Shown piece by piece: positions 4,999-48,587 of a stretch of 64,000 bases of DNA (within the stretch, counting starts at the first letter, position 1; each line of letters begins with the position of its first letter). The DNA lies in NCBI GenBank assembly GCA_046757885.1, contig JBHHZD010000006.1, positions 14,914 through 78,913 on the forward strand, written 5' to 3'. The notes under the pieces were generated by a model. That model was given only the letters and a program-made list of their open reading frames with translations. It was not told the DNA's origin and did no database searches. Made by a program: the position numbers and the translations under genes. The DNA is from Gemmatimonadota bacterium (GTDB lineage: Bacteria > Gemmatimonadota > Gemmatimonadetes > Palauibacterales > Palauibacteraceae).

Positions 4999-7068
4999 TC
5001 AGGGCGCCAGGCCGGGATCGGGCTCCTGAAGGTGGAGGATCCAGAGTCCCGAGTGCATGTCGGAAACGTAGATATCACCCTTGTACGGCTGCGGTCCCCA
5101 GGCCATCGTCGAGTGCGGCACCGTCCCCTGCGCATCCTCCGTCATGAACACGCCCAGCTCGCGTCCCTGACGGTAGAGGTCTCCGCGGAGCTCGCCCGAG
5201 ATGTCGACCACGCGAAGGCCGCCCTGGTAGTGTGCCACGTAGAGCCGATCGTCCTCCGCCCACAGGTTGTGCGGCCCGGCGCCCGGAACGCCGTAGCGAG
5301 CGATCTCCACGGGGCGCTCGATGTCGGTCACGTCGAGGACGTGCACGTACCCCTTGGGCCCCGTCTCCGCACAGTAGCGACAGCTGAGCACCTCGTCGCC
5401 GAGAAACACGTAGTCCTTGTAGCGGATGGCGTGGTGCGTGTTGCCGGCCGAGTCCGGCCCGACGGCGTACCGATAGCGAAACTGGGAGACGAACGCCGGA
5501 TCGGTCGGCGTGCCGCCCCTGAGGCCCGCGCCGACGTCGAGAATGACGAGGCCGTCGTTCCAGTAGCTCAGGTACGCAAGCCCGTCCTTGACCATCACGT
5601 CGTGCAGGTACTTGTCGGGGCGCTCCAGGCCCCAGCGCCCCACGTTGCGCGGCCGGGCGGGGTCGGAGATGTCGATGATGTGCACGTCTCGGGTGCCGTC
5701 GTTGACCGCGTACACGAGATCGCCGTCGATCCAGACGTTGTGCACCCCGCCCGTGAGGTTCTCGGTGAAGTGGGACACGATGGTCGGATGGGCCGGATCG
5801 GCGATGTCGAGGATCGTGATTCCGTTCCGGCGGTTCGAGGCCTGCTCGCTCGTGATGATCGCGAGCGTGGCGTCCTCGTTCACCTTCACGTCGTTCACCC
5901 GTCGGCCGTCCGCCTTCACGGAATCCGTGATCGTCGGATGCGCCGGATCCGTCACGTCCCATGCGTACATCGTCGCGGCGGACATCGTCCCGGTGTAGGC
6001 GTAGTCGCGCCCGTCCGCCCCCTCGAACACCCACAGATCCGTCGTGGAGCCGGCCTCCGGGGGGACCACGCCGTGCGCGACGAGCTTCACGGGGCGGCGC
6101 GGAGGCCGGCGCCCGACCTTCACGTCGGCGACCGAAGAGAGGGAACCGACCGTCGCGACCACGCGGTAGAGCCCCGGCTCGTCGGCCACGAAGGCTCCGT
6201 CGGACGCCATCTCCGCCGCGGCCGTCGCTCCGCCCAGCCCGGCGGCCGTCCACTCGACATCCACCGGCACGGGGCGGCCGCGGCCGTCCAGGGCGGTGGC
6301 CGAGAAGCGGATGACCTCGCCCGCCGCGAGCTCGGCCCGATCCGGCACCACGCGCAGCCGCCGAACCGGATTCTCGACCACGCGCAGCTCGACCGACGAC
6401 TCGACGCCCTCCGACGCCGCCGTGAGGATGGCGGACCCCGGATGTCCCGCGAGAATCGTGGCGTCGTGGATGACCTCCAGCACGCCCGGGTCCGAGGAGG
6501 CCCAGGTGATCGTCGCGTCTTCTCGCCGCCCGCGCGCCGAGAAGGCGGTCGCGGACACCAGCCTGCGCGTGCCCGCCAGCAGGGACTCGTCGGGGCCCGG
6601 CGCGTCGATCGCGATCCGGCTCACCGGGAGCGGATGCACGACCACCTCCAGGGTGGCCTCCACGGCCCCCCCATCCGCCTCCGGCCGGGGCACGCGAAAC
6701 GTGAAGGTCGTCTTCCCGGCCGCGAATCCCTCGATGCTCGCCGCCTCCGGATCGAAGGCCGCCGCCACGCCGGAGGCGCTCCACTCCATCATCACCCCGG
6801 CCACCGGATCGCCTCGCGCGTCCAGCGGGATGACCGCCTCCACCGGAGCCACGTCGCCGACCGTCAGCTCGAGGGACCCGGGCCTGATCTCGATCCGCTC
6901 GACCCGTCGGGCGAGGAGCTGGGCCGCGCCGGCCGGGCTCGTGGGCCCGGCGGCATCGACCGCCACCCCGGCGGGCGCCGGCGGAGGAGCGGGAGGTGAC
7001 TCGGCTCCGCGCCGCGCGCCGCACCCCGCGAGCACGAGCAGGGCGAGCAGTGTGGGTCGTCTCGTCAC
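4999..7068 (-). CDS. lipoprotein with bacterial Ig-like (Big_2) domains and an LVIVD-repeat beta-propeller
   Basis: Start reassigned to GTG at 7068, preceded by GGAGGTGTTTCC. Lipobox LLALLVLAGCGA. Repeated Ig-like segments, then LVIVD-type repeats (GGVHNVWIDGDLVYAV, RDVHIIDISD, DGLVILDV, GGLRVVDIS). The ORF-track version (to 7293) is over-extended. Confidence 0.7.
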   Translation of the reverse strand: MTRRPTLLALLVLAGCGARRGAESPPAPPPAPAGVAVDAAGPTSPAGAAQLLARRVERIEIRPGSLELTVGDVAPVEAVIPLDARGDPVAGVMMEWSASGVAAAFDPEAASIEGFAAGKTTFTFRVPRPEADGGAVEATLEVVVHPLPVSRIAIDAPGPDESLLAGTRRLVSATAFSARGRREDATITWASSDPGVLEVIHDATILAGHPGSAILTAASEGVESSVELRVVENPVRRLRVVPDRAELAAGEVIRFSATALDGRGRPVPVDVEWTAAGLGGATAAAEMASDGAFVADEPGLYRVVATVGSLSSVADVKVGRRPPRRPVKLVAHGVVPPEAGSTTDLWVFEGADGRDYAYTGTMSAATMYAWDVTDPAHPTITDSVKADGRRVNDVKVNEDATLAIITSEQASNRRNGITILDIADPAHPTIVSHFTENLTGGVHNVWIDGDLVYAVNDGTRDVHIIDISDPARPRNVGRWGLERPDKYLHDVMVKDGLAYLSYWNDGLVILDVGAGLRGGTPTDPAFVSQFRYRYAVGPDSAGNTHHAIRYKDYVFLGDEVLSCRYCAETGPKGYVHVLDVTDIERPVEIARYGVPGAGPHNLWAEDDRLYVAHYQGGLRVVDISGELRGDLYRQGRELGVFMTEDAQGTVPHSTMAWGPQPYKGDIYVSDMHSGLWILHLQEPDPGLAP

Positions 7069-7085
7069 GGAAACACCTCCAGTCG
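7066..7085 (-). repeat. 20-nt translation-initiation-region repeat, copy 1 (cgactggaggtgtttccGTG)
   Basis: The reverse complement of 7066..7085 equals cgactggaggtgtttccgtg, identical to 19509..19528; both end in the GTG start of a lipoprotein gene. Confidence 0.6.
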
Positions 7086-7094
7086 GATGCGGGC

Positions 7095-8582
7095 TCAGAG
7101 GACGATCGATCCGGCGGCGGGCGACCCCACTTCGTCCTCGGCGCCGAATCTGCGCCCCAGCCAGCGGTTCAGAGCCAGAAAGACGCCGGCCGCCAGCATC
7201 CACTGAACGAGCACGGTCCCGACGTTGGAGCTCGAGCGCGGTGTCAGCGTCGCGGCGAGGTCCGACGGATCGAACGCCTGCAACAGCCACCATCCCATGA
7301 GAACGATGGCCTCAACGGTAACGAGCCGGATCGCCCAGTTCCACCAGCGCCCGACGATGATGTCGCATCCGTCCCGGTTCACGAGCGTCCGCCGGAACCG
7401 ATCCACGCCGTACCGGATCACACCGAGGGCGAAGAACAGCCCGGAGAGCATGAGCCCCACCCCCCAGACCCAGTCCTGGTTGCGGAAGAACGCCACCGAG
7501 AGGGCCGAGGGAAGCCCGAGCAGGAAGCCGCCCGCGCCCACGATGAGGATCGATCTCGTGCGCGTGAGTCCGGCATCGATGAGCACGCGGGAAGCGAGCT
7601 CGATCATCGCGATGAGGCTGCTCCAGGCCGCGAACACGAGGGCCAGGAAGAAGAGCGCCATGAAGGCCGAGCCCCCCGGCATGCGGGCGAACAGCTGCGG
7701 GACCCAGATGAACGTGAGGCCTTCGTTGCCGGCACCCACGATCGTGTCCGCCGCGCCCGGCATGATCGCGAACACGGTGCACAGGACCATGACCCCGGCC
7801 AGCAGGGACACGGTGTTGTTGCCGAAGCCGAGGACGAACGCGTTCAGCGTCGTGTCTTCCCGGCGCCGCAGATAGACGGCGTAGGCGAGGATGAGCCCCC
7901 ACCCGGCCCCCGTGTCCCACGCGTTCTGGGTCAGGGCCTCCAGCCACACGCGGGCCTCTCGTAGCCCGTGCCAGTCGGGCGTGAACAGGAAGGCGAGACC
8001 CGCCTCCGCCCCGGGGAGCGTGACGGCGCGAATCGCGAGGATGACCACGAGGAGGAACAACGCCGGGATGAGGAAGCGGGCCGCTCGCTCGATGCCCTTC
8101 ACGCCCCGGATCACGACGAGGACGCCGAGCGACATCGCGATCGCGTGCGTGACCACGGCGGCCCCGGACCCGGCGTATCCGTCCCAGAAGCGCTGCGCCG
8201 CGTCCGGCGACGTCATGGGAATCCCCTGCGTGACCGCACCCCACAGGTACCGGATCGTCCAGCCCATCACGACGGAGTAGTAGAACATGATCGCGATCGC
8301 CGTGAAGGCGATCCACGCCCCCATCCAGGCGCAGCGTGGAGCCACGACCCGGGCGAAGGCCCCGATGGGTCCGCTGCGGGCCTGTCGTCCCATCGCGAAC
8401 TCCACGAGGATGAGCGGGACCGACCACAGCAGCAGGAAGACGACCCACGCGATGAGGAAGGAGCCGCCGCCGTTGTTCGCCGCGACCCGCGGAAATCGCC
8501 AGATGTTTCCCGTCCCCACGGCCATGCCGAGCATGGCGAGCATCATTCCCCACCGCGATGAGAACCGTTGCTCCTCCGTCAC
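7095..8582 (-). CDS. sodium-dependent transporter, neurotransmitter:sodium symporter (NSS/SNF) family
   Basis: Signature MLGMAVGTGNIWRFP near the N-terminus and about 11-12 TM segments. Start reassigned to GTG at 8582 (GTGA overlap with the upstream hydrolase stop). The 400-aa N-terminal extension in the ORF track is Arg/Gly/Pro-rich GC noise. Confidence 0.85.
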   Translation of the reverse strand: MTEEQRFSSRWGMMLAMLGMAVGTGNIWRFPRVAANNGGGSFLIAWVVFLLLWSVPLILVEFAMGRQARSGPIGAFARVVAPRCAWMGAWIAFTAIAIMFYYSVVMGWTIRYLWGAVTQGIPMTSPDAAQRFWDGYAGSGAAVVTHAIAMSLGVLVVIRGVKGIERAARFLIPALFLLVVILAIRAVTLPGAEAGLAFLFTPDWHGLREARVWLEALTQNAWDTGAGWGLILAYAVYLRRREDTTLNAFVLGFGNNTVSLLAGVMVLCTVFAIMPGAADTIVGAGNEGLTFIWVPQLFARMPGGSAFMALFFLALVFAAWSSLIAMIELASRVLIDAGLTRTRSILIVGAGGFLLGLPSALSVAFFRNQDWVWGVGLMLSGLFFALGVIRYGVDRFRRTLVNRDGCDIIVGRWWNWAIRLVTVEAIVLMGWWLLQAFDPSDLAATLTPRSSSNVGTVLVQWMLAAGVFLALNRWLGRRFGAEDEVGSPAAGSIVL

Positions 8583-25021: not shown

Positions 25022-26356
25022 ATGGATGATTCGTTCGCCGTGAGCGGACGGAGAGGAGCCCGGCCGACCTCGGCCGGGCTCCGGCGCTTGGAGGGCGCCG
25101 CTCTTCTCCTGGCCGTCTTCGCGGCCGCCTGCGGGCGCGAGCCGCGTGCGACGGAGCCGATGGCCTCGCCACGCGCCGACGCCAGGGTGTTCGAGGACAT
25201 GCAGGACTTCCTCGACGGCTACATGGTGAGGCCGATCCCCTCCCAGGGATCTCCCCCGGAAGAGTTTTCGGCGCTCGAAGCGTCTCTCCAGCCCAGGGAC
25301 TGTGGCACGTGCCACGTCCAGCAGTATCAGGACTGGCAGACGACCGTCCACTCGCGCGCCTATTCTCCAGGTCTCTCGGGCCAGCTCGTGAGCCAGGAGG
25401 ACACGAACTTCGGGTATGTCCGGAGCTGCTACACCTGTCACGCCCCCCTGTCCGAGCAGGCCGCGAAGCTCCAGTCTTCCGGGGGGGCCTACCTGCGAAA
25501 TCCGGACTTCGACCACGAGCTCAAGGAGCACGGCCTCGTGTGCGCGGCCTGTCACGTCCGTGGCTGGAGGCGGTACGGGGCACCGCGGCGCGATGGCTCC
25601 GTCGAGCCGTCCCCACCGGGCTCGCCTCACGGCGGCGTGACGAGGTCCCCGTTCTTCGAGGACCCGCGGCTGTGCGGGAGCTGTCATCAGTTCGAGTCGC
25701 CGGCCCCGAACGGAAAATCTCTCCAGAACACGCTCACGGAGTGGAGACAGAGCCGCTACGCGCGCGAGGGCATGACGTGCCAGAAGTGCCACATGCCGGA
25801 CCGCAGACATCTGTGGCGGGGCATCCACGACCCCGAGATGACGGCGTCCGGCATCACGATCGAATGGGTCGGCGTGGGGCCCGCGGCGGCGCGGGAGGGT
25901 GGCGTGGGGATCCGCGTGACGAACAGTGGCACGGGCCACCGATTCCCGACGTACGTGACGCCCGAGGTCCGAATCCGCGTCGAGCTGCTGGACGGAGCGC
26001 ACGAGCCGATCCCGGGCGCGTTCACCGACAGCGCCATCGCGCGACGCGTGACGACGAGGGCAGGAGCCTGGGTCGAGCTATCGGATACCCGGCTCGCCCC
26101 GGACAGCAGCATGGTCGTGACGGTGCCGGCGGGCGGTCTGGCGGCGGAAGCGGCGCGAGCTACGGTGACCGTCCACCCGGACGCGTTCTACCAGGGCGTG
26201 TACCGGAGCCTGCTCTCCGGAGCGCTGAGCGACACCTCACGGGTGCTTCTGCAGAAGGCGCTGCGGAGAACCGAGGAGTCCCCGTACGGGATCTTCGACG
26301 AAACGATCTCGCTCGTTCCCGAGCCTCCGAGCGCGAGCCGCACGCTTCGGGACTAG
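25022..26356 (+). CDS. pentaheme c-type cytochrome lipoprotein
   Basis: Five CxxCH motifs: CGTCH, CYTCH, CAACH, CGSCH, CQKCH. Lipobox LLLAVFAAACG. Begins 19 nt after the NPCAA gene stop. The minus-strand ORFs 24683..26002 and 24634..25200 are antisense artefacts. Confidence 0.8.
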   Translation: MDDSFAVSGRRGARPTSAGLRRLEGAALLLAVFAAACGREPRATEPMASPRADARVFEDMQDFLDGYMVRPIPSQGSPPEEFSALEASLQPRDCGTCHVQQYQDWQTTVHSRAYSPGLSGQLVSQEDTNFGYVRSCYTCHAPLSEQAAKLQSSGGAYLRNPDFDHELKEHGLVCAACHVRGWRRYGAPRRDGSVEPSPPGSPHGGVTRSPFFEDPRLCGSCHQFESPAPNGKSLQNTLTEWRQSRYAREGMTCQKCHMPDRRHLWRGIHDPEMTASGITIEWVGVGPAAAREGGVGIRVTNSGTGHRFPTYVTPEVRIRVELLDGAHEPIPGAFTDSAIARRVTTRAGAWVELSDTRLAPDSSMVVTVPAGGLAAEAARATVTVHPDAFYQGVYRSLLSGALSDTSRVLLQKALRRTEESPYGIFDETISLVPEPPSASRTLRD

Positions 26357-39426: not shown

Positions 39427-40056
39427 CTACCCGCCGGAGGCCTCCGGATCCTCGATGAGGGTCATCTGGTCGTCACCCCGCGAAGGAACGACGTGGTGGC
39501 GGCGGCATCGCGCCTCGTAGCTCTCCGACCCCCCGACCTGAATCGTGGGCCCTTCCGCGGGAGCCGGCTGTCCGTCGATCAGGCGCTGGTTGCGCGTGGC
39601 GAGCTCGCCGCACACCACGCAGATGGCGTGCAGCTTGTCGATGCGCTCCGCGATGGCGAGGAGCTCCCCGATGGAACCGAAGGGCCGGCCACGGAAATCC
39701 ATGTCCGTGCCGGACACGATGACCCGACAGCCACGATCCGCCAGCGCGCTCACCACCCCGACGATTCCCGGGTCGAGAAACTGCACCTCATCGACGGCGA
39801 CGACTTCCGTGTCGGGCTCGATCCATTCCGCGACGTCCCGGGAGCTCGTCACCGCCTTCGCGTCGATCATGCGGCCGTCGTGGGAGCTGATGGTCTGGAT
39901 GCCGCTGTAGCGGTCGTCGAGATGCGACTTGAACACCTGGACCTTTCTGCGCGCGATGAGCGCCCGTCGGACGCGGCGCAGGAGCTCCTCGGACTTGCCG
40001 CTGAACATCACTCCCGTGATGACCTCGATCGACCCGTCCCTGCCGTCGGCGGCCAC
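39427..40056 (-). CDS. tdk: thymidine kinase
   Basis: P-loop GVMFSGKSEELL, VAVDEVQF, Zn ribbon CVVCG...CRRHH. Confidence 0.9.
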   Translation of the reverse strand: MAADGRDGSIEVITGVMFSGKSEELLRRVRRALIARRKVQVFKSHLDDRYSGIQTISSHDGRMIDAKAVTSSRDVAEWIEPDTEVVAVDEVQFLDPGIVGVVSALADRGCRVIVSGTDMDFRGRPFGSIGELLAIAERIDKLHAICVVCGELATRNQRLIDGQPAPAEGPTIQVGGSESYEARCRRHHVVPSRGDDQMTLIEDPEASGG

Positions 40057-40322: not shown

Positions 40323-40676
40323 TCAGACCTTCACCGAACGGGTCAGCAGGTCGCGAAGATCCGCCTCCTTCAGCTGCGCCGCGGCTTGCCTCGGAACCTT
40401 GGATACGCCCGCCGGCACGAGCGTGTAGCGCTGCGCCTCCGCCGGCCGATTCCGATTGCGGAACATCACCAGCAGACGTGGTGATTGCGGATCCGTCCCC
40501 GAATGGAGGCAGAGCTCCGCCTGCCAGCGGTCTCCCGAAGGGCTCGTGAACTCGACCTTGTGGCTATCGGCCGCTCCGTCGAGCCGGAACAGAAGCTTTT
40601 TCAGCAGTGCCTTGGCCTTCGCGTCCATCCCTTTCGTCGCTCCTGGGTCGGTGGCGCCCGGGGTCGGTCGGATCAT
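40323..40676 (-). CDS. hypothetical protein
   Basis: 117-aa ORF, no known motif. Confidence 0.35.
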   Translation of the reverse strand: MIRPTPGATDPGATKGMDAKAKALLKKLLFRLDGAADSHKVEFTSPSGDRWQAELCLHSGTDPQSPRLLVMFRNRNRPAEAQRYTLVPAGVSKVPRQAAAQLKEADLRDLLTRSVKV

Positions 40677-41044
40677 CTCCAGCCGCTCGGGAGTGCGCGT
40701 AACCTAGAGCAGCGCCCGCCGCCTTGACAACAGGCCTGGCCGGGTGCCGGGAACCGGATGAAACCGGTGGATCGTGGCGTCACCTCCGTAGTCCCGGCGC
40801 CACACCGGGGGACGGAAAGCTCGCAGTTTTCCACAATCCCGCGGCCCTGCCGCGGCCGTGGTCGGCGCCCATATCCAACTGGCACATCGGCAGATACGAG
40901 GCCGAGCCGTCTCCGCTGAGCGAAAATGCCTGCTTCCGCGCCCCCCCGGGGGCGGGTATGTTTCTTGTACCCTCGACCGATCTGTCCCGAGGCCCGCCCC
41001 CGACGGCGCGGCAGCATGAGACAGGCCTGTGAGGCAGGAGAGCC

Positions 41045-42775
41045 GTGAGCCTGACCTTTTCCGTAAACGAGCGCTGCACGTCCTGCATGGCCTGCGTGCG
41101 CGTATGCCCGGTAGAGGCGATCTCGGTCTCGGGCGAAGAGGTCGCGATCCACGAGGAGACGTGCATCGAGTGCGGCCTCTGCGTTCCCGCCTGCCACCAC
41201 GAGGCCATCGACGTCGTCGGAGATCTTCCCGGTGGAGCCGAAGCCATCCGCGATGAGAAGGCGCTGTTGATCCTCCCCACGGAAGTCACGGTGTTCTTTT
41301 TCCCGGCCACGCCCGAACAGATCATCAACGCGTGCTACGACCTGGGCTTCGATGGCGTCTTCTTCGAGGCCGTTGGCGATGAGCTCGTGGCCGGAGAATA
41401 CCTGCGCATCTGGAGGGACGAGGGACCACGGGCGTGGATTCGGTCCACGAGCCCGATCGTCGTGGATTACTGCCGGACCCGGCTCCCCGAGCTCCTTCCC
41501 TTCCTCGCCCCGGTCGTCACCCCCGCGGTCGCGCTGGCCCGTCACCTGGGTGAGTTCGCGGCACAGGGCTACCGCATCGTCTACGCCGGCCTCGGGACTC
41601 CCGGCTCCAATGGAAGCCTGATCGGCATCGACGACTGCATCTCCTTGTCCGAGCTCGAACAGGTGATGGCGGAGGTCGACGCGAGTCCCGCGTCGCAGCC
41701 GCTCACGCTGACGCGGATCCCGCCCGAACGTCGTCGTCACCTGTCGCTCGCCGGCGGTCTGCCGCGAGCGATGCTCGATGCTCAGACGCTGTCAGCTCGT
41801 GGATTCCAGCGCAGGCGAGGACTCGAGAGCCTGGGAGCGGTGGCGCGGGCCGTGATCGGAGAAGAGTCGCCGCTGGGTTTCGTGGACGTCCTTCCGTTCG
41901 AAGGAAATCTCGGGCATCCGGCTTTCGGCCCCGATGAGGATCTGTACTGGCGGAAGACGATCGCCGAGCTCGCGGAGCCCCAACGGGCGGAGAGTCCCGT
42001 GGTGGAGCGGTCGTCCGACCTGGACCTCGGGGCGACGTTCCGGCCGAAACACGAGACGCTGCCGACACCCGACCCGGAAGAGGTCCAGCGCGTGCTCGCA
42101 CAGATCGGCATGACGCCGTCCGGACGGTACTGGAACACCGGCTCCTGCGGCCACGCGACGTGCCTGGAGTTCGCCCAGGCCGTGGCCCGCGGGCGCTCGA
42201 CCCTGTCCCTGTGCCCGATCTACCTGAACCGCCAGTACGAGAGGGCTTCCGAAGATGCCCTCCACGACGGTCTCACGGGCGTGTTCACCTATCGCGTCCT
42301 GGAGGAGCGACTCGCGGAAGAGGTCTCGAGAGCGAACCGCACGGGAACGTCGATCGCGGTCCTGTTCATCGATCTGGACAAGTTCAAGGACGTGAACGAC
42401 ATCTTCGGCCACGGCGTGGGAAACCTGATCCTTACCGGTGTTGCGAAGATTCTGGGTGAAGCGATACGCTCAACCGACATCGCGTGCCGCTACGGTGGCG
42501 ACGAGTTCGTCGTCATTCTCGTCAACCCGGATCGACCCGGTGCGGCAGGGGTTGCGGAGGAGATTCGGCGTCGGGTGGAGGACTTCAAGGTTCCGACGCC
42601 CGATGGGGAGGCGGGGGTTACGCTCAGCATCGGGCTCGCGTATCATTCCGGAGCCCCGCGGTCGAATCTGACGAGTGAAGTCCTCATGGCAGAGGCCGAC
42701 GCCTCGCTGTACGTGGCGAAGGCGCACGGCGGCAATGCCGTTCACCCTGCAGTGGAAGGTGAGCTCGTTCGATGA
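41045..42775 (+). CDS. sensory diguanylate cyclase: 2x[4Fe-4S] ferredoxin + [FeFe]-hydrogenase-like (HydA large-subunit-type) domain + extra Cys cluster + GGDEF
   Basis: N-terminal CTSCMACVRVCP and CIECGLCVPAC (two ferredoxin motifs). Hydrogenase-like core with conserved Cys (FFFPATPEQIINACYDLGFDGVFFEAVGDEL..., TSPIVVDYC). Additional C-x-H-x2-C-x14-C Cys/His segment NTGSCGHATCLEFAQAVARGRSTLSLCP. C-terminal GGDEF with intact site RYGGDEF and DIFGHGVGN. Confidence 0.8.
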   Translation: MSLTFSVNERCTSCMACVRVCPVEAISVSGEEVAIHEETCIECGLCVPACHHEAIDVVGDLPGGAEAIRDEKALLILPTEVTVFFFPATPEQIINACYDLGFDGVFFEAVGDELVAGEYLRIWRDEGPRAWIRSTSPIVVDYCRTRLPELLPFLAPVVTPAVALARHLGEFAAQGYRIVYAGLGTPGSNGSLIGIDDCISLSELEQVMAEVDASPASQPLTLTRIPPERRRHLSLAGGLPRAMLDAQTLSARGFQRRRGLESLGAVARAVIGEESPLGFVDVLPFEGNLGHPAFGPDEDLYWRKTIAELAEPQRAESPVVERSSDLDLGATFRPKHETLPTPDPEEVQRVLAQIGMTPSGRYWNTGSCGHATCLEFAQAVARGRSTLSLCPIYLNRQYERASEDALHDGLTGVFTYRVLEERLAEEVSRANRTGTSIAVLFIDLDKFKDVNDIFGHGVGNLILTGVAKILGEAIRSTDIACRYGGDEFVVILVNPDRPGAAGVAEEIRRRVEDFKVPTPDGEAGVTLSIGLAYHSGAPRSNLTSEVLMAEADASLYVAKAHGGNAVHPAVEGELVR

Positions 42776-43485
42776 CGCCTGAAGAGAGGGAAGCCGGACC
42801 CGAGGTGATGGGTCTGGATCCGTGGGGCCTCCGACGCATCGAGAAGCTTCTGGCGAGCCTCGACGGCGTCGATTCGATGAAGATCGTCCCCGACGGTCAC
42901 GGGGGCATCGACGAGATCCACGTTCTCAGCAGCTCATCGCTCGGCCCCAAGCAGATCGTGCGTAACATCGAATCGGCCCTGCTGGCCGAGTTCGGCCTTC
43001 AGATCGACCACAGGAAGATCTCGATCGCCCGCGTCAAGGCTCCTGAGATCGAGGCCGCTCCCGTGCCGGAAGTCACGCCCTCTCCTGCCGCGCGCGCGGG
43101 CGAGCGCCGCATACTTCTCGACAGCGTCCAGATCGAGCGACGCGCGGGTCAGACGGTGAGTTGTCGCGTCGAGCTCCTCGGCGGGTCCAACAGCTGGGTC
43201 GGCGAGGCGGATGGCCCCGATTTCGAGCAATCCCGCCTGGATGTCGCCGCCACGGCCGCGCTCACCGCCCTGCAACAGGCCTCGGATTCCGACGCGATTC
43301 TTTCGCTGAACGGCATCGCTCGCGCGGAGTTGTTCGGTCGCAACCTCGTCATCGCCGTGATCCACGGCCGCTCCGGACGCGAGTTCGCCTCCCTGGCGGG
43401 CATCGCTACCGTGAAGGACTCGCCGGAAGAGGCCGCGGTGCTGGCGTGCCTCCAGGCCACGAATCGCTGGGCGGACGGCCGCTAA
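42772..43485 (+). CDS. hypothetical protein translationally coupled (ATGA) to the sensory diguanylate cyclase
   Basis: 237-aa ORF in a consistent frame; no recognised motif. Confidence 0.5.
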   Translation: MTPEEREAGPEVMGLDPWGLRRIEKLLASLDGVDSMKIVPDGHGGIDEIHVLSSSSLGPKQIVRNIESALLAEFGLQIDHRKISIARVKAPEIEAAPVPEVTPSPAARAGERRILLDSVQIERRAGQTVSCRVELLGGSNSWVGEADGPDFEQSRLDVAATAALTALQQASDSDAILSLNGIARAELFGRNLVIAVIHGRSGREFASLAGIATVKDSPEEAAVLACLQATNRWADGR

Positions 43486-43829: not shown

Positions 43830-45167
43830 ATGGCGCTAGACAAGAAACTCCGAAGGCTAATCGCGGGTGTCGCCTCGGCGGCTGTCCTCGTGACGGTCTT
43901 GGTCTTTCGCTTCTTCCCTTCTCCGCTTACTCAGCGCTCACTGCTGGCTTTCCTTACCCTCCTAGCGCTCAGCACGCTGAGCATGATGCTGTACCTAAAG
44001 TTCACGGAGTCGGGCTCGACGACGTCTATGGACTTCGTGCCGGAGCTGGGTGCGATCCTGCTGCTGGGCCCCGCGGGCGCCGTAGCCGTCACCTTGGCTT
44101 CGGAGCTGGTCTCTCATCTGTTCCTCTATCGTGAGAAGGCCCTGTTCAAGAAGGTCTTTAACACGGCGCAACTAGTTCTCGCGGTGGCGGCGGCTGGTGT
44201 AGTCTACGTCGCTTTTACAGGTACTCCGAGTCTGACAGATCTGCAGTTTCGTTCGACGCTGCCGCCGTTCATACTTGCCGTTCTGGTGTACTTTGCGGTC
44301 AATACGGGCACGGTAGCGTATGTGGTATCGCTCTCCGAGGGAAGGCCTTACCTGGAGTGCTGGCGGGGGATAACAGCGGGCTTGATCGTCTTCGATGTGG
44401 CGATGAGCCCCCTGGCCTATGTTGTGGCGTACCTTTACGTGCAGTTCAATCCTCTAGCCCTCATGCTCGCCATCATTCCGCTCATCGGACTGCGCTACAG
44501 CTACGGCATCAACTTCGAGCTTCGGCAGCTGAACACTGATCTTCTTCGGTTGATGGTCAAGACGATCGAGGCCCAGGATCCGTACACTTCGGGACACTCC
44601 ATAAGGGTGGCGGAGACCGCACGCGCCATAGCTCGAGCCCTGAAAGTAAAGCCCAAAGAAGCTGAGATCATTGAGACTGCGGCCTTGCTTCACGACATCG
44701 GAAAGATTGACGTTGCATACAGCGAGATCCTCCGTCAGAAGGGGCCATTGAGTGCCGAGCAGCGGGAACTTATTCGAGCTCACCCTGATCGCGGTGTCGA
44801 TATTATCAAGTCGATTCGGAGCATTGATCCCGAGGTGCTAAGGTGTGTCCGATACCACCATGAACGATGGGACGGAGACGGTTACCCGGTCGGGCTTGAA
44901 GGCGAAGCAATCCCGCGCGGTGCTCGGATTATTGGAGTCTGCGATACGATCGATGCGATGACCACGGCCCGTCCCTATCGAGGAGCGCTGCCTGTAGAAG
45001 TTGTGCGTGAAGAACTGCAGAAGCACAGTGGTGGTCAGTTTGATCCTGCGGTCGTCACGGCTATCCTCGCCACGGATGTCCTCGAAAAGATAGACGTTCC
45101 TCAACCTCGGCCCAGATCTGGTGGCCAGCGTCTAGCAGGTATCGCCCCGATCAAAGGAAGAGACTAG
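43830..45167 (+). CDS. HD-GYP domain c-di-GMP phosphodiesterase with N-terminal multi-TM sensor domain
   Basis: About 8 TM helices, then the HD-GYP catalytic domain: GHSIRVAETA, LLHDIGK, HHERWDGDGYP (GYP), DTIDAMTTARPYR. Confidence 0.85.
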   Translation: MALDKKLRRLIAGVASAAVLVTVLVFRFFPSPLTQRSLLAFLTLLALSTLSMMLYLKFTESGSTTSMDFVPELGAILLLGPAGAVAVTLASELVSHLFLYREKALFKKVFNTAQLVLAVAAAGVVYVAFTGTPSLTDLQFRSTLPPFILAVLVYFAVNTGTVAYVVSLSEGRPYLECWRGITAGLIVFDVAMSPLAYVVAYLYVQFNPLALMLAIIPLIGLRYSYGINFELRQLNTDLLRLMVKTIEAQDPYTSGHSIRVAETARAIARALKVKPKEAEIIETAALLHDIGKIDVAYSEILRQKGPLSAEQRELIRAHPDRGVDIIKSIRSIDPEVLRCVRYHHERWDGDGYPVGLEGEAIPRGARIIGVCDTIDAMTTARPYRGALPVEVVREELQKHSGGQFDPAVVTAILATDVLEKIDVPQPRPRSGGQRLAGIAPIKGRD

Positions 45168-48100
45168 AGCCGGCCTTGTGACTTAGCGTCTGCGGCGTAG
45201 CGCCACCGCCGAAAGAACCCTACGAACCAAAGAAGGTTCGTCTCCCTTAGAGACTTACGCAGGGCCTCTTTGTTGGCGGCCTCGGGTGGACAGTTGTCCC
45301 GGCCATAAAAAGAGTTTCCGATCCAAAGGAGCTTCAGATAACTAGGGGTGTCCTGCAGGCGCTCCTTCTCGGCGACTTCAAAAAACCGGTCCGATGATCT
45401 CGCACACTGTGCTTGGAGGCTCGTATACGCGCGGAACCACTGCACCTTGAACCTCTCCTGCACGCCGCCCGACTCATCCGGTATGTCTAAGAGGCTCATG
45501 GAATTTCTCACCGCTGCCAAGTCGCCTCGCTGGAGTGAGGTGAGACCCACGCACGCAGTAAGCTCTGGTATGAACCCGATCGAATGATTGGAAGAAGCAA
45601 TTGCGAGACACTTAGAGTACTGTTCGGCTGCTTCAGCCGACTTTCCTTGGTAAAACAGTGCGTTGGCCTTATTGATGCTTAGCGGAAGTACTACATCTAG
45701 GGTCACGGGTACATCGTGCTGTATGTCCTCTACTCGCTTGGTGACGCTGTTGAACTCTTCCCACTTGCCCTGCTCCAAGTAGCAACATGCAAGATTGTTC
45801 AGTAGCCAGCTTAGCTCGACCAAGTCGTTCCGCTTGGTAGCCAAGTCGATTGCTACCTTGATCTCGTGTTCCGCAATATCCCACTCGGCCCTCCGAGTCT
45901 GAATGAGCCCTCGAAAGAGCTGGACTCTTCCGGCAAGCCTGGTGGGAACGTCCTTTATTAAGGAGGAGATTGCCTCGACCTGCTCGAGAGCCTTTTCGGC
46001 TGTTTCGAAAAAGGCATAGTACGCGGCTAGCGAGCATGCCGCGGAAACGGAGGCGATTGCAGTCAGCGTCCCAGCTTCCCTCCCCTCTGAGAGAAGCCTC
46101 CTGATCGTTACTGCGTTGGAAGTAGCAAGAGCGCTGTCCGCCTGCCGCATCGCGATCTTGAGACTCCAGTGAAGTCGCTCCATTTCGCTCTCGAGCCGTC
46201 CCCTAGGCTCCTGAATGTCCCCAATCTCAAGCGGCAAAGCGTCGACAAGTTGGCGACCAAGCGTCCACTCCGCTCGCTCAACTAGGGCCTTCACAACGCT
46301 CAACTTCACCGCGATGCGTTCTTCGAGGGGCATGTTGGGGTCGAGGACGAGCATCCGGTCGAAGTGCTCCTGCGCGGACTGTAGCTGCGCCGTGGACAGC
46401 TCGGAGTCCGCGAGGATTCGGAGCGCCCGCACCGTTTCATCGCGGGTTCGGGACGTGCTCACGGCGAGAGCCGCCATATGCGAGGCTTCCAGATGGCCGC
46501 CGGCTTCACTCGCCTCGCGGGCGGCTCGTATGGCGCAGTCGAATGCCTTCTCCCGGTCCCCTCCGAGTCGGTAGTGGCGGGCCAGCGTGGCGAAACCGGT
46601 GTCCGGTTCTGCGCAGAGGAGTCGGGCCGCCGCACTGTGAAGGGCGGCGCGCTGCATCGAGGTCAGCTGGCCGTAGACATACTCCCGGGTGATGTCGTTC
46701 ACGAACTCCACCCGGTCCTCGTCGTCCTGAATGAGGCCCCGAGCGTACAGATCTTCGCCCAGCGCGGCGCATTCTCCCAGTGAGATGTTGGAGACCGATG
46801 ACACATTGCGGGGCGTGGCGTATCGTTCCAGCACTGCGATCGATCGGAGCAGATGTAGCGATCGATCCGAGAGGCCCTGAAGGCGGATCCGGAAGACCTC
46901 GCTGAGGCGGGCATTCGTGAGCAAAGCCCACACGCGAGCCTTTTCCGCCCACTCGGCCGAGCTGACGGCGGCTCGAAAAACTTCCAGCGCGTAGAACGGG
47001 TTCCCTGCGGAGAGGTGCTGGGCCAGGGACACGGCCGCCGTACCTTCGGCGTCGGGTCTCACGCACAGGACGAGACTCGCGATCTGGTCTTCCGTGAGGG
47101 GTCCGAGCGTAAGTGTCTCGCTTCGGCCGCCGGCGACGTACCCGGCGACCGGAGGCGCGCTGGCGTTGACCCTGTCTCCGCGAACCGTGCGGAACGTCGT
47201 GATCAGGAGGAATGGCTGCTCCGCCAGCCGGCGAGCGATGCAGTGGAGCAGGGATGCGGACGTCGCGTCGATCCACTGAACATCCTCCACAACCCACACG
47301 ATCGGCTGTCGTGTCGCCGCCATCTTCAAGAGATCAGCGACTTCCTCGTACAGCCGCCTCCTCCACGCCTCGGGATCCGGAGCATCGGTCTCCTCGTCTT
47401 CGAGGAAGTCGTCGAACTCGGGAAACAGGTGGCCGAGGCGCGTGAACGCTTCGGACCCCGGGGCCAGCTCGCGCGCCACACGGCCCGCGACCGGCCTGAG
47501 GCCGTCGACGACGGGGCCATAGGGTATGTCTGCCTCCGCTGGATAGCAGCGACTCTCCAGGCACTGGACGGGCTCGACGCCCAGGGAGTGCACGAACGCC
47601 TTCACCAGTCGTGATTTTCCGATGCCTCCTTCGCCGCGGACGACGACCGTCGAGCCGCCGCCTCGACCCAGGTTGCGGGCTCGCGTTCGGAGGAACTCGA
47701 GCTCCTCTTCGCGCCCGATGAGGGGGAGCTCCGCGTCCTCGTCGAGGTCGCCGGTCGGGCGGGCGGGCGGCGTGGAGCGGATCCGCTCCGCGAGGGCGCG
47801 TGTCTCGCTGGAGAAGCCACCGGGAAGCTCGGCCTCGAGTCGCCTGTCCGTTTCCTCGAAGTGCTGCAGGGCCGACTCTCGATCACCGTGCAGCCACAGC
47901 CCACGCATCAGGGCGCGGTGTGCTAGCTCATCCAGCGGATCGATCTCGACGAGCTTCATCGCCGCGATGCACATCTCGCCCCAGAGTCCGCGCGAATCAC
48001 ACTGCTCCACGTATCGGCGCAGCGTCACGCGACTGAGGCGCTGCAGGCGGACTCGCTCCGCTTCCAACCAGCGCTCGAAGTCGTCCGTGCCCGTGGACTG

Positions 48101-48472
48101 GAGGTTGCAGGCGAAGGGCCCGTTGCAGAACTCGATGGCCCGCTCAAGCTGTCCCCTCTTCAGCGCGAGCTCCAGCTCGCGGGCATCGTAGGAGATCCGC
48201 TGCGCGTCCAGACGCAGCTCCTCGGCCGGACCCGTCACGAAGGCGCCGTCGAGTTGCCCTCTCAGGTCGTAGATGGCCTGACTCAGCGAATGTCTCGCGC
48301 GCTCGGGAGGACTCGTCCAGAGAAGGGCCGCCAGCTCGCTTCGGGTGTGCACCCGGCCGGCGTTCGCCGTCAGGTACAGCAGGAGGGAAAGATGCTTGCG
48401 CGAGCGGAAGCGCACGACCTCCCCCGAGGGGTCCCGGAGTGACACGCCACCGAGGCTCTGGAGATGATACAT
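45164..48472 (-). CDS. SARP/AfsR-like STAND regulator: winged-helix DNA-binding + BTAD + P-loop NTPase + TPR array
   Basis: Start at MYHLQSLGGVSLRD (ATG 48472). OmpR-type wing HLSLLLYLTANAGRVHTRSELAALLW. BTAD helices, Walker A GEGGIGKSRL, Walker B VWVVEDVQWID, long C-terminal TPR region. Stop TAG overlaps the convergent HD-GYP stop in the palindrome CTAG. Confidence 0.8.
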   Translation of the reverse strand: MYHLQSLGGVSLRDPSGEVVRFRSRKHLSLLLYLTANAGRVHTRSELAALLWTSPPERARHSLSQAIYDLRGQLDGAFVTGPAEELRLDAQRISYDARELELALKRGQLERAIEFCNGPFACNLQSTGTDDFERWLEAERVRLQRLSRVTLRRYVEQCDSRGLWGEMCIAAMKLVEIDPLDELAHRALMRGLWLHGDRESALQHFEETDRRLEAELPGGFSSETRALAERIRSTPPARPTGDLDEDAELPLIGREEELEFLRTRARNLGRGGGSTVVVRGEGGIGKSRLVKAFVHSLGVEPVQCLESRCYPAEADIPYGPVVDGLRPVAGRVARELAPGSEAFTRLGHLFPEFDDFLEDEETDAPDPEAWRRRLYEEVADLLKMAATRQPIVWVVEDVQWIDATSASLLHCIARRLAEQPFLLITTFRTVRGDRVNASAPPVAGYVAGGRSETLTLGPLTEDQIASLVLCVRPDAEGTAAVSLAQHLSAGNPFYALEVFRAAVSSAEWAEKARVWALLTNARLSEVFRIRLQGLSDRSLHLLRSIAVLERYATPRNVSSVSNISLGECAALGEDLYARGLIQDDEDRVEFVNDITREYVYGQLTSMQRAALHSAAARLLCAEPDTGFATLARHYRLGGDREKAFDCAIRAAREASEAGGHLEASHMAALAVSTSRTRDETVRALRILADSELSTAQLQSAQEHFDRMLVLDPNMPLEERIAVKLSVVKALVERAEWTLGRQLVDALPLEIGDIQEPRGRLESEMERLHWSLKIAMRQADSALATSNAVTIRRLLSEGREAGTLTAIASVSAACSLAAYYAFFETAEKALEQVEAISSLIKDVPTRLAGRVQLFRGLIQTRRAEWDIAEHEIKVAIDLATKRNDLVELSWLLNNLACCYLEQGKWEEFNSVTKRVEDIQHDVPVTLDVVLPLSINKANALFYQGKSAEAAEQYSKCLAIASSNHSIGFIPELTACVGLTSLQRGDLAAVRNSMSLLDIPDESGGVQERFKVQWFRAYTSLQAQCARSSDRFFEVAEKERLQDTPSYLKLLWIGNSFYGRDNCPPEAANKEALRKSLRETNLLWFVGFFRRWRYAADAKSQGRL

Positions 48473-48587
48473 GTTCCGCCCCGCCGATGGGTCGCGTTGG
48501 ACGCCCGCCCCACACCGACCCCGCACGCATCCAGGGTGCACTCGGGCGTCATCGCAGCATCAACTAACACGTCGAAGGGCGCTTACG

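Follow-up and report, generated by a model that had tools for sequence, protein, structure and literature searches.

A predicted diguanylate cyclase of Gemmatimonadota with a HydS-type hydrogenase domain that has lost its H-cluster ligands

The Gemmatimonadota are abundant in soil and sediment, and are poorly studied. On a 64-kb stretch of DNA from this phylum, referred to here as the window, an earlier note had described a 576-aa diguanylate cyclase joined to ferredoxin and [FeFe]-hydrogenase-like domains, and had proposed that it transduces H2 or redox state into c-di-GMP synthesis. The locus therefore raises the question of what such a protein might sense: is hydrogen a credible signal, or does a hydrogenase scaffold serve some other input? 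The cyclase gene and its main parts are these.

41045..42775, + strand: 576-aa Fe-S/pseudo-hydrogenase diguanylate cyclase, GTG start (open reading frame list, Pfam, homologues)
41075..41194, + strand: two ferredoxin-type [4Fe-4S] motifs, C11-x2-C14-x2-C17-x3-C21-P and C40-x2-C43-x2-C46-x3-C50
41252..42034, + strand: H-domain-like (pseudo-hydrogenase) domain, residues ~70-330
42131..42220, + strand: C-terminal Fe-S segment, PF04060-like, T365-x2-C368-x-H370-x2-C373-x16-C390 (alignment to CoFeSP 4djd_C)
42257..42736, + strand: GGDEF domain, residues 405-564, with an RxxD I-site at 42467-42478 and GGDEF at 42494-42508

A Shine-Dalgarno-like AGGAGAG lies 5' of the GTG codon at 41036-41042, and the N-terminus of the protein is conserved among homologues. 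Pfam assigned two Fer4 domains (residues 9-58), a Fe_hyd_lg_C match (residues 88-169, profile positions 25-110 of 245, 33.0 bits against a cutoff of 22.1), PF04060 'FeS' (residues 366-391, 31.3 bits, the match beginning at profile position 7) and GGDEF (residues 405-564, 139 bits). The Fer4 pair and the Cys positions both agree with the claim that one protein carries two 4Fe-4S ferredoxin motifs. The domain arrangement is evidently not a chance one, because the same architecture is common to more than 100 full-length homologues (54-70% identity) and relatives are encoded by 497 stretches from GTDB species genomes. A promoter and terminator scan gave no signal exceeding background, and no Rfam family matched in the whole 64-kb window, hence no c-di-GMP riboswitch.

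The identity of the central domain was best seen at the profile level. When the single sequence (residues 1-402) was searched against the PDB with phmmer, nearly all matches were to ferredoxin domains and T. maritima HydA (7p5h_A) was found only weakly (E 0.0012); a sensor-region profile was needed to align the H-domain to that structure. In hhalign, the window sensor matched 68 HydS-like relatives with a probability of 100% and an E-value of 4e-58 over 339 columns. Pfam and profile-profile homology thus agree on the HydA-type large-subunit-like domain described earlier, and by these alignments the central domain is homologous to the H-domains of sensory, HydS-type [FeFe]-hydrogenases. Two other identities, which had been named as possible better fits, were rejected in favour of HydS-type homology: a NuoF or NADH dehydrogenase 51-kDa-like protein, as no Complex1_51K or NADH_4Fe-4S domain or fold was present, and a Nar1-like protein, as none of the four cluster Cys is retained. 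Three remnants of the H-cluster motifs were located, L1 by HMMER alignment to 7p5h_A as well as by MAFFT and hhalign, and L2 and L3 by the latter two.

41441..41455, + strand: L1 remnant, R133-S-T135-S136-P in place of TSCCP
41582..41608, + strand: L2 remnant, Y180-A-G-L-G184-T-P-G-S in place of (F)IGPCxAKK
41879..41920, + strand: L3 remnant, F279-V-D-V-L-P-F285-E-G-N288-L-G-H-P in place of FxDxLxCxGCIxGP

None of the H-cluster Cys ligands is retained, and neither is the proton-transfer residue, a check that the earlier note had proposed. MAFFT and hhalign agree that C300, C355, C499 and C503 of CpI correspond to S136, G184, F285 and N288, respectively. In L1 the proton-transfer Cys (CpI C299) is replaced by T135 and the cubane Cys by S136; L2 has lost Lys358; and in L3 the bridging Cys503 is N288 while GP reads HP. 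Over 90% of the HydS-like relatives hold Cys at the columns of S136, G184 and N288. As C97 is the one conserved Cys left in the domain, it is evident from the sequence that no H-cluster can be ligated, nor even a Nar1-type cubane.

The same picture was obtained from 85 related loci, of which almost all come from metagenome-assembled genomes (MAGs) of Gemmatimonadota. Position 136 is Ser in 48, Asp in 33, Asn in three and His in one, and never Cys; position 288 is likewise never Cys (0/85), and Cys is rare at positions 184 (4/85) and 285 (2/85). With the H-cluster ligands lost, the sequence rules out H2 sensing by way of an H-cluster. We therefore consider it very improbable that this is a hydrogen sensor in which an H-cluster of the hydrogenase-like domain couples H2 level to c-di-GMP synthesis, even if the HydS-type architecture (two [4Fe-4S] sites, H-domain, C-terminal cluster motif) and the Cys-intact, GGDEF-linked relatives in anaerobe-like contexts would fit such a role. 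The altered L2 and L3 residues also speak against it, as does the absence of any hydrogenase, HydE, HydF or HydG among the 26 large ORFs searched with Pfam, a result that concerns the 64-kb window and says nothing on the whole genome. Of the proposed H2/redox transducer, the H2 part thus falls, and the redox part stays plausible in view of the ferredoxin clusters and the three-Cys site. The signal is most likely redox state or iron-sulfur status, and not H2.

Both ferredoxin motifs read CxxCxxCxxxC. All eight Cys are retained in 69 of 71 aligned loci, each single position being kept in 70 or 71 of the 71; the two exceptions (L039 and L081) have one substitution each. The C-terminal segment corresponds to the HydS/CoFeSP motif, which has been defined for HydS as Cx2Cx4Cx16C (PMC8163306), with the first Cys replaced by T365, so that three of the four Cys are present and the window protein does not carry the full motif of the HydS-type groups C and D. 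Its last spacing is x16 (C373-x16-C390), which corrects the C-x-H-x2-C-x14-C reported before. Across the 85 loci, position 365 holds Cys most often (47 loci), then Thr (22) and Ser (five), and the full motif occurs in more distant orthologues. T365 aligns with C379 of TamHydS, the first Cys of the motif, and in the C379A variant of TamHydS the cluster is of the [3Fe-4S] type (PMC13104023). That engineered variant has a natural parallel in the Cys-to-Thr change at the first C-terminal ligand here, which makes the window protein a natural system for asking what the enigmatic C-terminal cluster does.

The output domain looks catalytically competent. RYGGDEF is intact at residues 482-488, as the earlier note had read it, and an RxxD I-site (R475-S-T-D478) lies five residues upstream of GGDEF. 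The Arg and Asp of the I-site are present in all 83 aligned loci, and the GGDEF motif is kept wherever it could be aligned, with a single exception (L042, GGDEM).

Overall, we lean slightly towards a diguanylate cyclase that is regulated by Fe-S state (redox, O2, iron), with a sensor exapted from a HydS-type sensory [FeFe]-hydrogenase and now devoid of the cofactor. Under this proposal, a dimeric cyclase would have its activity set by the state of the clusters, namely their oxidation state, damage by O2 or NO, or iron-sulfur supply. The three-Cys C-terminal site would probably hold a [3Fe-4S] or a labile, open-coordination 4Fe cluster. This site directly precedes what would be a single helix (residues ~391-406) leading into GGDEF, so changes there would reach the catalytic dimer, with the pseudo-hydrogenase domain acting as a putative structural relay. 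The cluster content and the redox dependence of cyclase activity are predictions from sequence, which weighs against this reading. In the AlphaFold model pLDDT falls below 50 at residues 15-24, 43-47 and 385-389; these are exactly the cluster regions, and the low confidence counts against Fe-S regulation, although it is expected in a model without cofactors.

The cyclase is encoded beside three further genes of interest.

42772..43485, + strand: 237-aa partner ORF, sharing a 4-nt ATGA overlap with the cyclase gene
43830..45167, + strand: MASE9-HD-GYP c-di-GMP phosphodiesterase (HD_5 114.1 bits, HD 72.4 bits, MASE9 34.6 bits)
45164..48541, - strand: convergent 1125-aa regulator with Trans_reg_C, BTAD, AAA_16 and TPR domains (Pfam), SARP/AfsR-like

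The ATGA coupling to the 237-aa ORF was seen at 42772 as had been claimed. Neither Pfam nor NCBIfam matched this partner, and scans of its individual homologues gave weak matches to STAS_2 (5/28) and LeuA_dimer (4/28). By fold search, its N-domain has an alpha-beta-beta-alpha-beta fold like that of the cytoplasmic domain of CDF transporters, and its C-domain, which follows a disordered linker, resembles the allosteric regulatory domain of LeuA and citramalate synthase. The 'MlaB component' label that JGI gives to some partner homologues was rejected, as the fold search returned the LeuA-regulatory and CDF C-terminal domain (CDF-CTD) folds instead. The HD-GYP translation contains 'HDIGK' and 'HHERWDGDGYP', thus bearing both the HD and GYP signatures, and the gene starts 1055 nt past the cyclase stop codon, close to the 1 kb estimated before.

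The neighbourhood is conserved together with the cyclase: the partner adjoins it in 69 of 70 loci, and synteny extends to the HD-GYP gene in 37 of 39 and to the BTAD-ATPase regulator in 26 of 27. The earlier suggestion of a local pair that makes and breaks c-di-GMP is thereby borne out, since cyclase, coupled ORF and HD-GYP form a conserved module, and with the regulator it becomes a set of four genes, conserved in Gemmatimonadota, that would make, modulate, break and regulate c-di-GMP. In the proposed mechanism, the MASE9-HD-GYP protein would break down the cyclase product, the partner, with its two allosteric-type ligand-binding folds, would probably provide a second input (a metabolite or metal), and the BTAD-ATPase regulator would likely act either downstream or upstream.

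In one sub-clade of orthologues (L040, L043, L045, L047, L049, L054, L058, L065 and others), ferredoxin domain and C-terminal Cys motif have both been lost, yet scaffold, GGDEF, partner and HD-GYP persist. From this it follows, on sequence grounds, that the core function of the family cannot depend strictly on Fe-S clusters, which is a point against the Fe-S-regulated reading. It speaks for an Fe-S-independent receiver, in which the pseudo-hydrogenase domain would bind the 237-aa partner or, where the H-cluster once sat, a new small ligand, the signal being a metabolite or metal at partner or pocket and the clusters being structural or a dispensable secondary input. The translational coupling and near-constant adjacency of the partner point the same way. 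We hold such a receiver to be possible but rather unlikely: the cyclase-partner complex and the ligand are both putative, and the retention of the eight ferredoxin Cys in nearly all aligned loci, with three or four C-terminal Cys in most, argues for a role of the clusters in those proteins that have them.

Residues of the former pocket motifs are at least 95% conserved phylum-wide (R133, S134, T135, Y180, G182, G278, F279, D281, L283, G287, L289, H291 and P292), as are R144, R166, R230, R231, R258, R303 and W302 at the former pocket. This conservation of the motifs points to purifying selection rather than decay. The seven Arg (R133, R144, R166, R230, R231, R258, R303), with D281, H291 and W302, would suit the Fe-S-independent receiver. 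The polar and charged residues lining the former active site, together with the retained electron-transfer-type 2x[4Fe-4S] domain, would also suit a redox enzyme, with the ferredoxin and C-terminal clusters feeding electrons to catalysis in a remodelled pocket and GGDEF being an add-on of secondary or regulatory importance. We judge this improbable, given that relatives of the sensor module are overwhelmingly fused to signalling outputs (HATPase_c in 28, GGDEF in 13 and a sigma-54 activator in 10 of the 68 sampled), that the conserved pairing with HD-GYP and a transcription regulator indicates signalling, and that Fe-S-free orthologues exist.

A bolder proposal, which we put forward tentatively and hold to be rather unlikely, is that a new ligand or cofactor site has arisen from the H-cluster pocket (R133, S134, T135, Y180, G182, R230, R231, D281, H291, W302 and R303 being invariant phylum-wide), forming with the partner, the MASE9-HD-GYP protein and the BTAD-ATPase regulator a core Gemmatimonadota c-di-GMP switch. 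The Fe-S-free orthologues suggest that such a switch might work without any Fe-S cluster. A pocket remade in this way would, if real, establish the 'pseudo-hydrogenase' domain as a new type of sensor.

Returning to the favoured Fe-S-regulated cyclase, its derivation can be traced among relatives. In a neighbour-joining tree built without bootstrap, the sequences that lack the Cys form a single clade, with P0243 and P0244 as stepwise intermediates, and the best-scoring matches to the window sensor profile from outside this clade are GGDEF-linked and Cys-intact. The H-cluster ligands have been lost completely from a bacterial HydS-type scaffold that is yet under strong purifying selection and conserved phylum-wide. 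For metagenome surveys, this is a caution: a 'Fe_hyd_lg_C' match in Gemmatimonadota is not to be taken for hydrogen metabolism or sensing.

Among known systems, eukaryotic Nar1 and NARFL (IOP1) are H-domain homologues that have no [2Fe] subcluster and no H2 turnover, and reuse the scaffold. Nar1-type proteins keep the Cys that bind a [4Fe-4S] cluster where the H-cluster used to sit and have no signalling output domain, whereas the window protein lacks all of those Cys, which excludes a cubane, and carries a signalling output. They are the nearest known parallel to a hydrogenase that may have been exapted as a signalling domain, and they still hold cubane ligands.

With the HydS proteins of T. 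maritima (TmHydS, group C/M2f) and T. mathranii (TamHydS, group D/M2e), the window protein shares the order of 2x[4Fe-4S], H-domain, Cx2Cx4Cx16C-type segment and output (PMC8163306), and HydS also lacks the proton-transfer Cys299 (PMC8163306). HydS keeps the four H-cluster Cys and binds an active H-cluster, in contrast to S136, G184, F285 and N288 here, and the first Cys of its C-terminal motif is Thr in the window protein. GGDEF directly follows the C-terminal cluster segment in the window protein, where group C HydS has a PAS domain and TamHydS nothing.

HydDB lists [FeFe] group C as kinase-, MCP- and phosphatase-linked, its only diguanylate cyclase-linked class being [NiFe] group 2c, 'diguanylate cyclase-linked (putative)' (PMC5037454). 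The 2c enzymes share the concept of a hydrogenase-type sensor controlling c-di-GMP synthesis; they differ in belonging to an unrelated metalloenzyme family, in being linked rather than fused, and in being presumed to bind an active-site metal centre. In the literature searched we found no description of HydS-GGDEF proteins, of a hydrogenase-GGDEF H-cluster or of Gemmatimonadota DGC-hydrogenase proteins, and no title or abstract on 4Fe-4S clusters and diguanylate cyclases suggested a described Fe-S diguanylate cyclase. The earlier view that a c-di-GMP output is unusual thus holds for the literature and HydDB, but not for sequence space, given the 13 GGDEF-linked HydS-like relatives. SiaD-SiaC is an example of a partner-controlled diguanylate cyclase; the partner here differs in having LeuA-regulatory-like and CDF-CTD-like folds, and its interaction with the cyclase is putative.

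A further comparison is with the HydS-like-GGDEF fusions that keep all four H-cluster Cys (P0262, P0269, P0287, which is MDI6799747.1 from an Actinomycetota MAG, and others), which occur in anaerobic Actinomycetota-type MAGs. They have the same Fer4, Fe_hyd_lg_C, PF04060 and GGDEF domains, with no separate PAS in the Pfam table of P0262, but retain Cys at L1, L2 and L3, and the Fe_hyd_lg_C match of P0262 is full-length (102 bits, profile 2-245 of 245). They adjoin Wood-Ljungdahl, PFOR, NuoE/F-like and LytTR two-component genes, and have neither the 237-aa partner nor HD-GYP. It is in these fusions, rather than in the window protein, that an H2-to-c-di-GMP transducer is plausible; the literature searched held no description of such a link, which is directly testable in them.

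The putative cyclase gene begins with GTG, 2 nt downstream of a ribosome-binding-like AGGAGAG, and its stop codon and the ATG start of a 237-aa ORF (the partner) overlap in an ATGA, so that the coupling claimed in the earlier note is present. The genes concerned and the Pfam domains of the 576-aa cyclase (the window protein) are as follows.

41045..42775, + strand: cyclase ORF, GTG start, 576 aa (ORF reading)
42772..43485, + strand: partner, 237 aa, ATGA overlap with the cyclase
43830..45167, + strand: MASE9-HD_5 gene (HD-GYP, 'HHERWDGDGYP'; Pfam, translation)
45164..48541, - strand: Trans_reg_C-BTAD-AAA_16-TPR regulator, 1125 aa, SARP/AfsR-like, convergent with the HD-GYP gene (Pfam)
Window protein residues 9-58: two Fer4 domains
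Residues 88-169: partial Fe_hyd_lg_C, profile positions 25-110 of 245 (33.0 bits, cutoff 22.1)
Residues 366-391: PF04060 'FeS' (31.3 bits)
Residues 405-564: full GGDEF domain (139 bits)

NCBIfam agreed on GGDEF, and its 'monomeric [FeFe] hydrogenase' match fell below threshold. Two CxxCxxCxxxC motifs (Cys 11/14/17/21 and 40/43/46/50) precede three central-domain cysteines (97, 143 and 198), the remaining ones being 368, 373 and 390 (with H370) and 481. RYGGDEF is intact at 482-488, five residues downstream of an RxxD I-site (R475-D478). ORF reading, Pfam and cysteine positions bear out the architecture first described, of two ferredoxin motifs, a hydrogenase-like region, a Cys/His segment and an intact GGDEF; the segment exists, but its spacing is not x14, as it reads C368-x-H370-x2-C373-x16-C390.

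From 14 homologues we built a profile of residues 62-402, the sensor region. In the PDB it matched T. maritima HydA, further [FeFe]-hydrogenases and, by way of the Cys segment, the N-terminus of the corrinoid/iron-sulfur protein, where a [4Fe-4S] cluster is bound. When 1.84 billion representative proteins were searched with this profile, 2078 relatives passed E<=1e-3, of which 98 also passed E<=1e-30. A Pfam scan of 68 sampled relatives found Fe_hyd_lg_C in 65 and PF04060 in 57, with HATPase_c (28), HisKA (26), GGDEF (13), sigma-54 activator (10) and PAS (8) as output domains; we assign these proteins to the HydS-type putative sensory hydrogenase family. With hhalign, the window clade aligned to the 68 over 339 columns (probability 100%, E 4e-58). 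The PDB matches, the Pfam content of the relatives and hhalign together indicate that the central domain is a hydrogenase domain by homology and fold, as had been proposed. A better match to a NuoF-like or other Fe-S protein did not occur, the profile searches matching [FeFe]-hydrogenases.

HMMER aligned 'RSTSP' of the window protein on 'TSCCP' of T. maritima HydA. MAFFT (113 sequences) and hhalign agree on all motifs.

H-cluster Cys motifs L1 to L3: family consensus, window protein and substitutions (CpI reference numbering).
L1: xSxCP; R-S-T135-S136-P; C299->T135, C300->S136
L2: GPCxAKK; G182-L-G184-T-P-G-S; C355->G184, K358 lost
L3: FxDxLxCxGCIxGP; F-V-D-V-L-P-F285-E-G-N288-L-G-H-P; C499->F285, C503->N288

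The columns of S136, G184 and N288 hold Cys in >90% of relatives. On the question of whether the H-cluster ligands are retained, the alignments give one answer: all four are replaced (S136, G184, F285, N288). The only conserved Cys of the domain is C97, where true hydrogenases have Leu. Because the ligand cysteines are gone and C97 stands alone, ligation of an H-cluster, and likewise of a Nar1-type cubane, would be impossible, and H2 sensing through an H-cluster is highly improbable for this protein. The earlier note's H2/redox-to-c-di-GMP transducer is therefore kept in its hydrogenase-like, c-di-GMP and module parts and loses its H2 part, as H-cluster ligands are absent.

Scanning one genome per GTDB species gave at least 497 confirmed stretches. 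The best 80 of these are almost all from Gemmatimonadota MAGs, including Palauibacterales-like, 'Candidatus Benthicola', Gemmatimonadales, Gemmatimonadaceae and a Gemmatimonas sp., and with five earlier loci they form a set of 85 (45-100% identity). Across this set Cys never occurs at position 136 (S 48, D 33, N 3, H 1) or 288, and occurs in 4 loci at 184 and 2 at 285. All eight ferredoxin cysteines are kept in 69 of the 71 loci aligned there (one substitution each in loci L039 and L081), RxxD in 83/83 aligned there, and GGDEF wherever aligned, with L042 (GGDEM) the sole exception. Position 365, the first Cys of the C-terminal motif, is Cys in 47, Thr in 22 and Ser in 5 of the 85, and the window protein lies within the Thr sub-lineage. 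L039 is a second, paralogous cyclase copy in the MAG of L036; it lacks an adjacent partner, C46 of its second ferredoxin motif is R, and Arg takes the place of the first C-terminal Cys.

Residues conserved at >=95% phylum-wide are R133, S134, T135, V139, V140, R144, P156, P160, Y180, G182, R230, R231, G237, G238, P240, G278, F279, D281, L283, G287, L289, H291, P292, W302 and R303. Such conservation of the former motif regions argues that the pseudo-hydrogenase domain is under purifying selection, not decaying. In an NJ tree the Cys-less sequences form one clade, with the metagenome proteins P0243 and then P0244 as successive sister lineages, both with GGDEF. P0243 already shows the clade's 'HP' for 'GP' and no L2 Lys, with Cys still present at L1, at L2 and at the two L3 positions; P0244 has Cys at L1 only. 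These look like evolutionary intermediates, snapshots of stepwise Cys loss.

Four long contigs (54-67% identity) share the order cyclase, ~240-aa ORF (4-nt overlap), MASE9-HD-GYP gene and convergent BTAD-AAA_16 regulator, and the 85 loci show the same order. Where the flanking sequence is long enough for a count, the partner adjoins the cyclase in 69/70, the HD-GYP gene lies downstream on the same strand in 37/39, and the regulator is on the opposite strand in 26/27; on these counts the suggested cyclase/HD-GYP pairing holds as a local unit. The data point to conservation of the fusion across Gemmatimonadota, together with a partner, a phosphodiesterase and a regulator dedicated to it.

The partner is identical to the product of ACE5HF_02725 (NCBI Gemmatimonadota MAG), and no Pfam family covers the 237-aa protein. 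Its source-named homologues, among 538 in all, are hypothetical proteins of Gemmatimonadota MAGs, except for a few JGI 'MlaB component' labels, which the fold search did not support. The predicted model (pLDDT 81) has an N-terminal alpha-beta-beta-alpha-beta domain, CDF-transporter-CTD-like with invariant D41, E48, H50, D79 and H80, then a disordered linker (92-110) and a C-terminal domain of two beta-beta-beta-alpha units, of the LeuA/citramalate-synthase allosteric type.

G+C falls to 0.56 at 44001-46000 against a window average of about 0.70, and GC3 of the HD-GYP and regulator genes (43830-48541) is 0.65-0.75 against 0.85-0.93 in most genes. Despite this, recent transfer seems unlikely, since both genes are syntenic across the phylum. 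Divergent from the cyclase gene lie two small ORFs without Pfam matches, at 40323-40676 (-) and, with ~78 aa, between 40056 and 40323 (-), adjoining a thymidine kinase (39427-40056, -); the three stay together in closer relatives (L001-L038), and the two small ORFs are absent from more distant Gemmatimonadales loci. An MtrC/MtrF-like multihaem cytochrome (25022-26356, +) and a multicopper oxidase (437-1540, -) may reflect metal or extracellular redox metabolism of this organism. Pfam found no hydrogenase or HydE/F/G maturase among the 26 large ORFs of the 64-kb window, a result of little weight for the genome as a whole, and no Rfam families were found within the window.

Judged by sequence, the cyclase domain and its I-site are intact, as is the 2x[4Fe-4S] domain, and H-cluster ligands are lacking. 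The 3-Cys C-terminal site directly precedes a helix (residues ~391-406, predicted model) entering the GGDEF domain. With modest confidence, we favour an Fe-S-cluster-regulated cyclase on an H-cluster-less HydS-derived scaffold, in which cluster state would set the activity of a presumably dimeric enzyme. T365 occupies the position of C379 in TamHydS, whose C379A variant holds a [3Fe-4S] cluster (PMC13104023); the natural cluster of the window protein may therefore be labile or higher in potential, which would suit it to detecting the cellular redox state, O2/NO or iron-sulfur supply. A metabolite or metal signal would probably enter through the partner, with the HD-GYP enzyme removing the product.

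A sub-clade in some Gemmatimonadota MAGs (L040, L041, L043, L045, L046, L047, L049, L054, L058, L065 and others; match near 6001-7500 in most of these) lacks the ferredoxin domain as well as the C-terminal Cys motif, having Cys-free, low-complexity N-termini and 'DPSGYASYLSL...' in their places. The 'IRSTSPLVVEY' scaffold and GGDEF are kept, with a downstream partner in all ten named and a downstream HD-GYP gene in 6/6 with a long enough contig (L041, L045, L047, L049, L054, L058). These loci hold the same module in a wholly Fe-S-free form. Because both Fe-S parts are lost and everything else is kept, the core role of the family cannot rest on Fe-S clusters alone, and we give substantial weight to the cyclase being an Fe-S-independent receiver, a tentative and less probable reading than cluster regulation. 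For the window protein itself we infer an Fe-S sensor that descends from HydS, has no H-cluster and is fused to GGDEF. Such exaptation of a hydrogenase scaffold within a phylum-wide module is unexpected and testable; the individual parts are familiar and the function is inferred.

GGDEF also occurs with intact L1-L3 cysteines, in about one fifth of sampled HydS-like relatives. The best non-clade matches to the sensor profile, which excludes GGDEF (P0262, P0263, P0266, P0269, P0271) are GGDEF-linked with all four cysteines, and Fe_hyd_lg_C of P0262 scores 102 bits over profile positions 2-245 of 245. Genomic context was viewed for two of the GGDEF fusions with all four H-cluster cysteines, P0269 (L086, 10001-11776) and P0287 (L087, 10001-11827; MDI6799747.1, Actinomycetota MAG). 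It is anaerobic and acetogen-like, with formate-tetrahydrofolate ligase (FTHFS), RACo, CdhD, PFOR and NuoE/NuoF-like genes and a LytTR two-component pair; neither the 237-aa partner nor an HD-GYP neighbour was found in these two contexts. Both proteins are plausible as genuine H2-to-c-di-GMP sensors, candidates not described in the literature searched, which held no description of an [FeFe]-type hydrogenase-GGDEF fusion; in HydDB the one DGC-linked class is [NiFe] group 2c (PMC5037454). Every HydS enzyme of groups C and D that has been characterised to date keeps the H-cluster (PMC8163306; PMC13104023), whereas the window protein has a HydS-type scaffold without H-cluster ligands.
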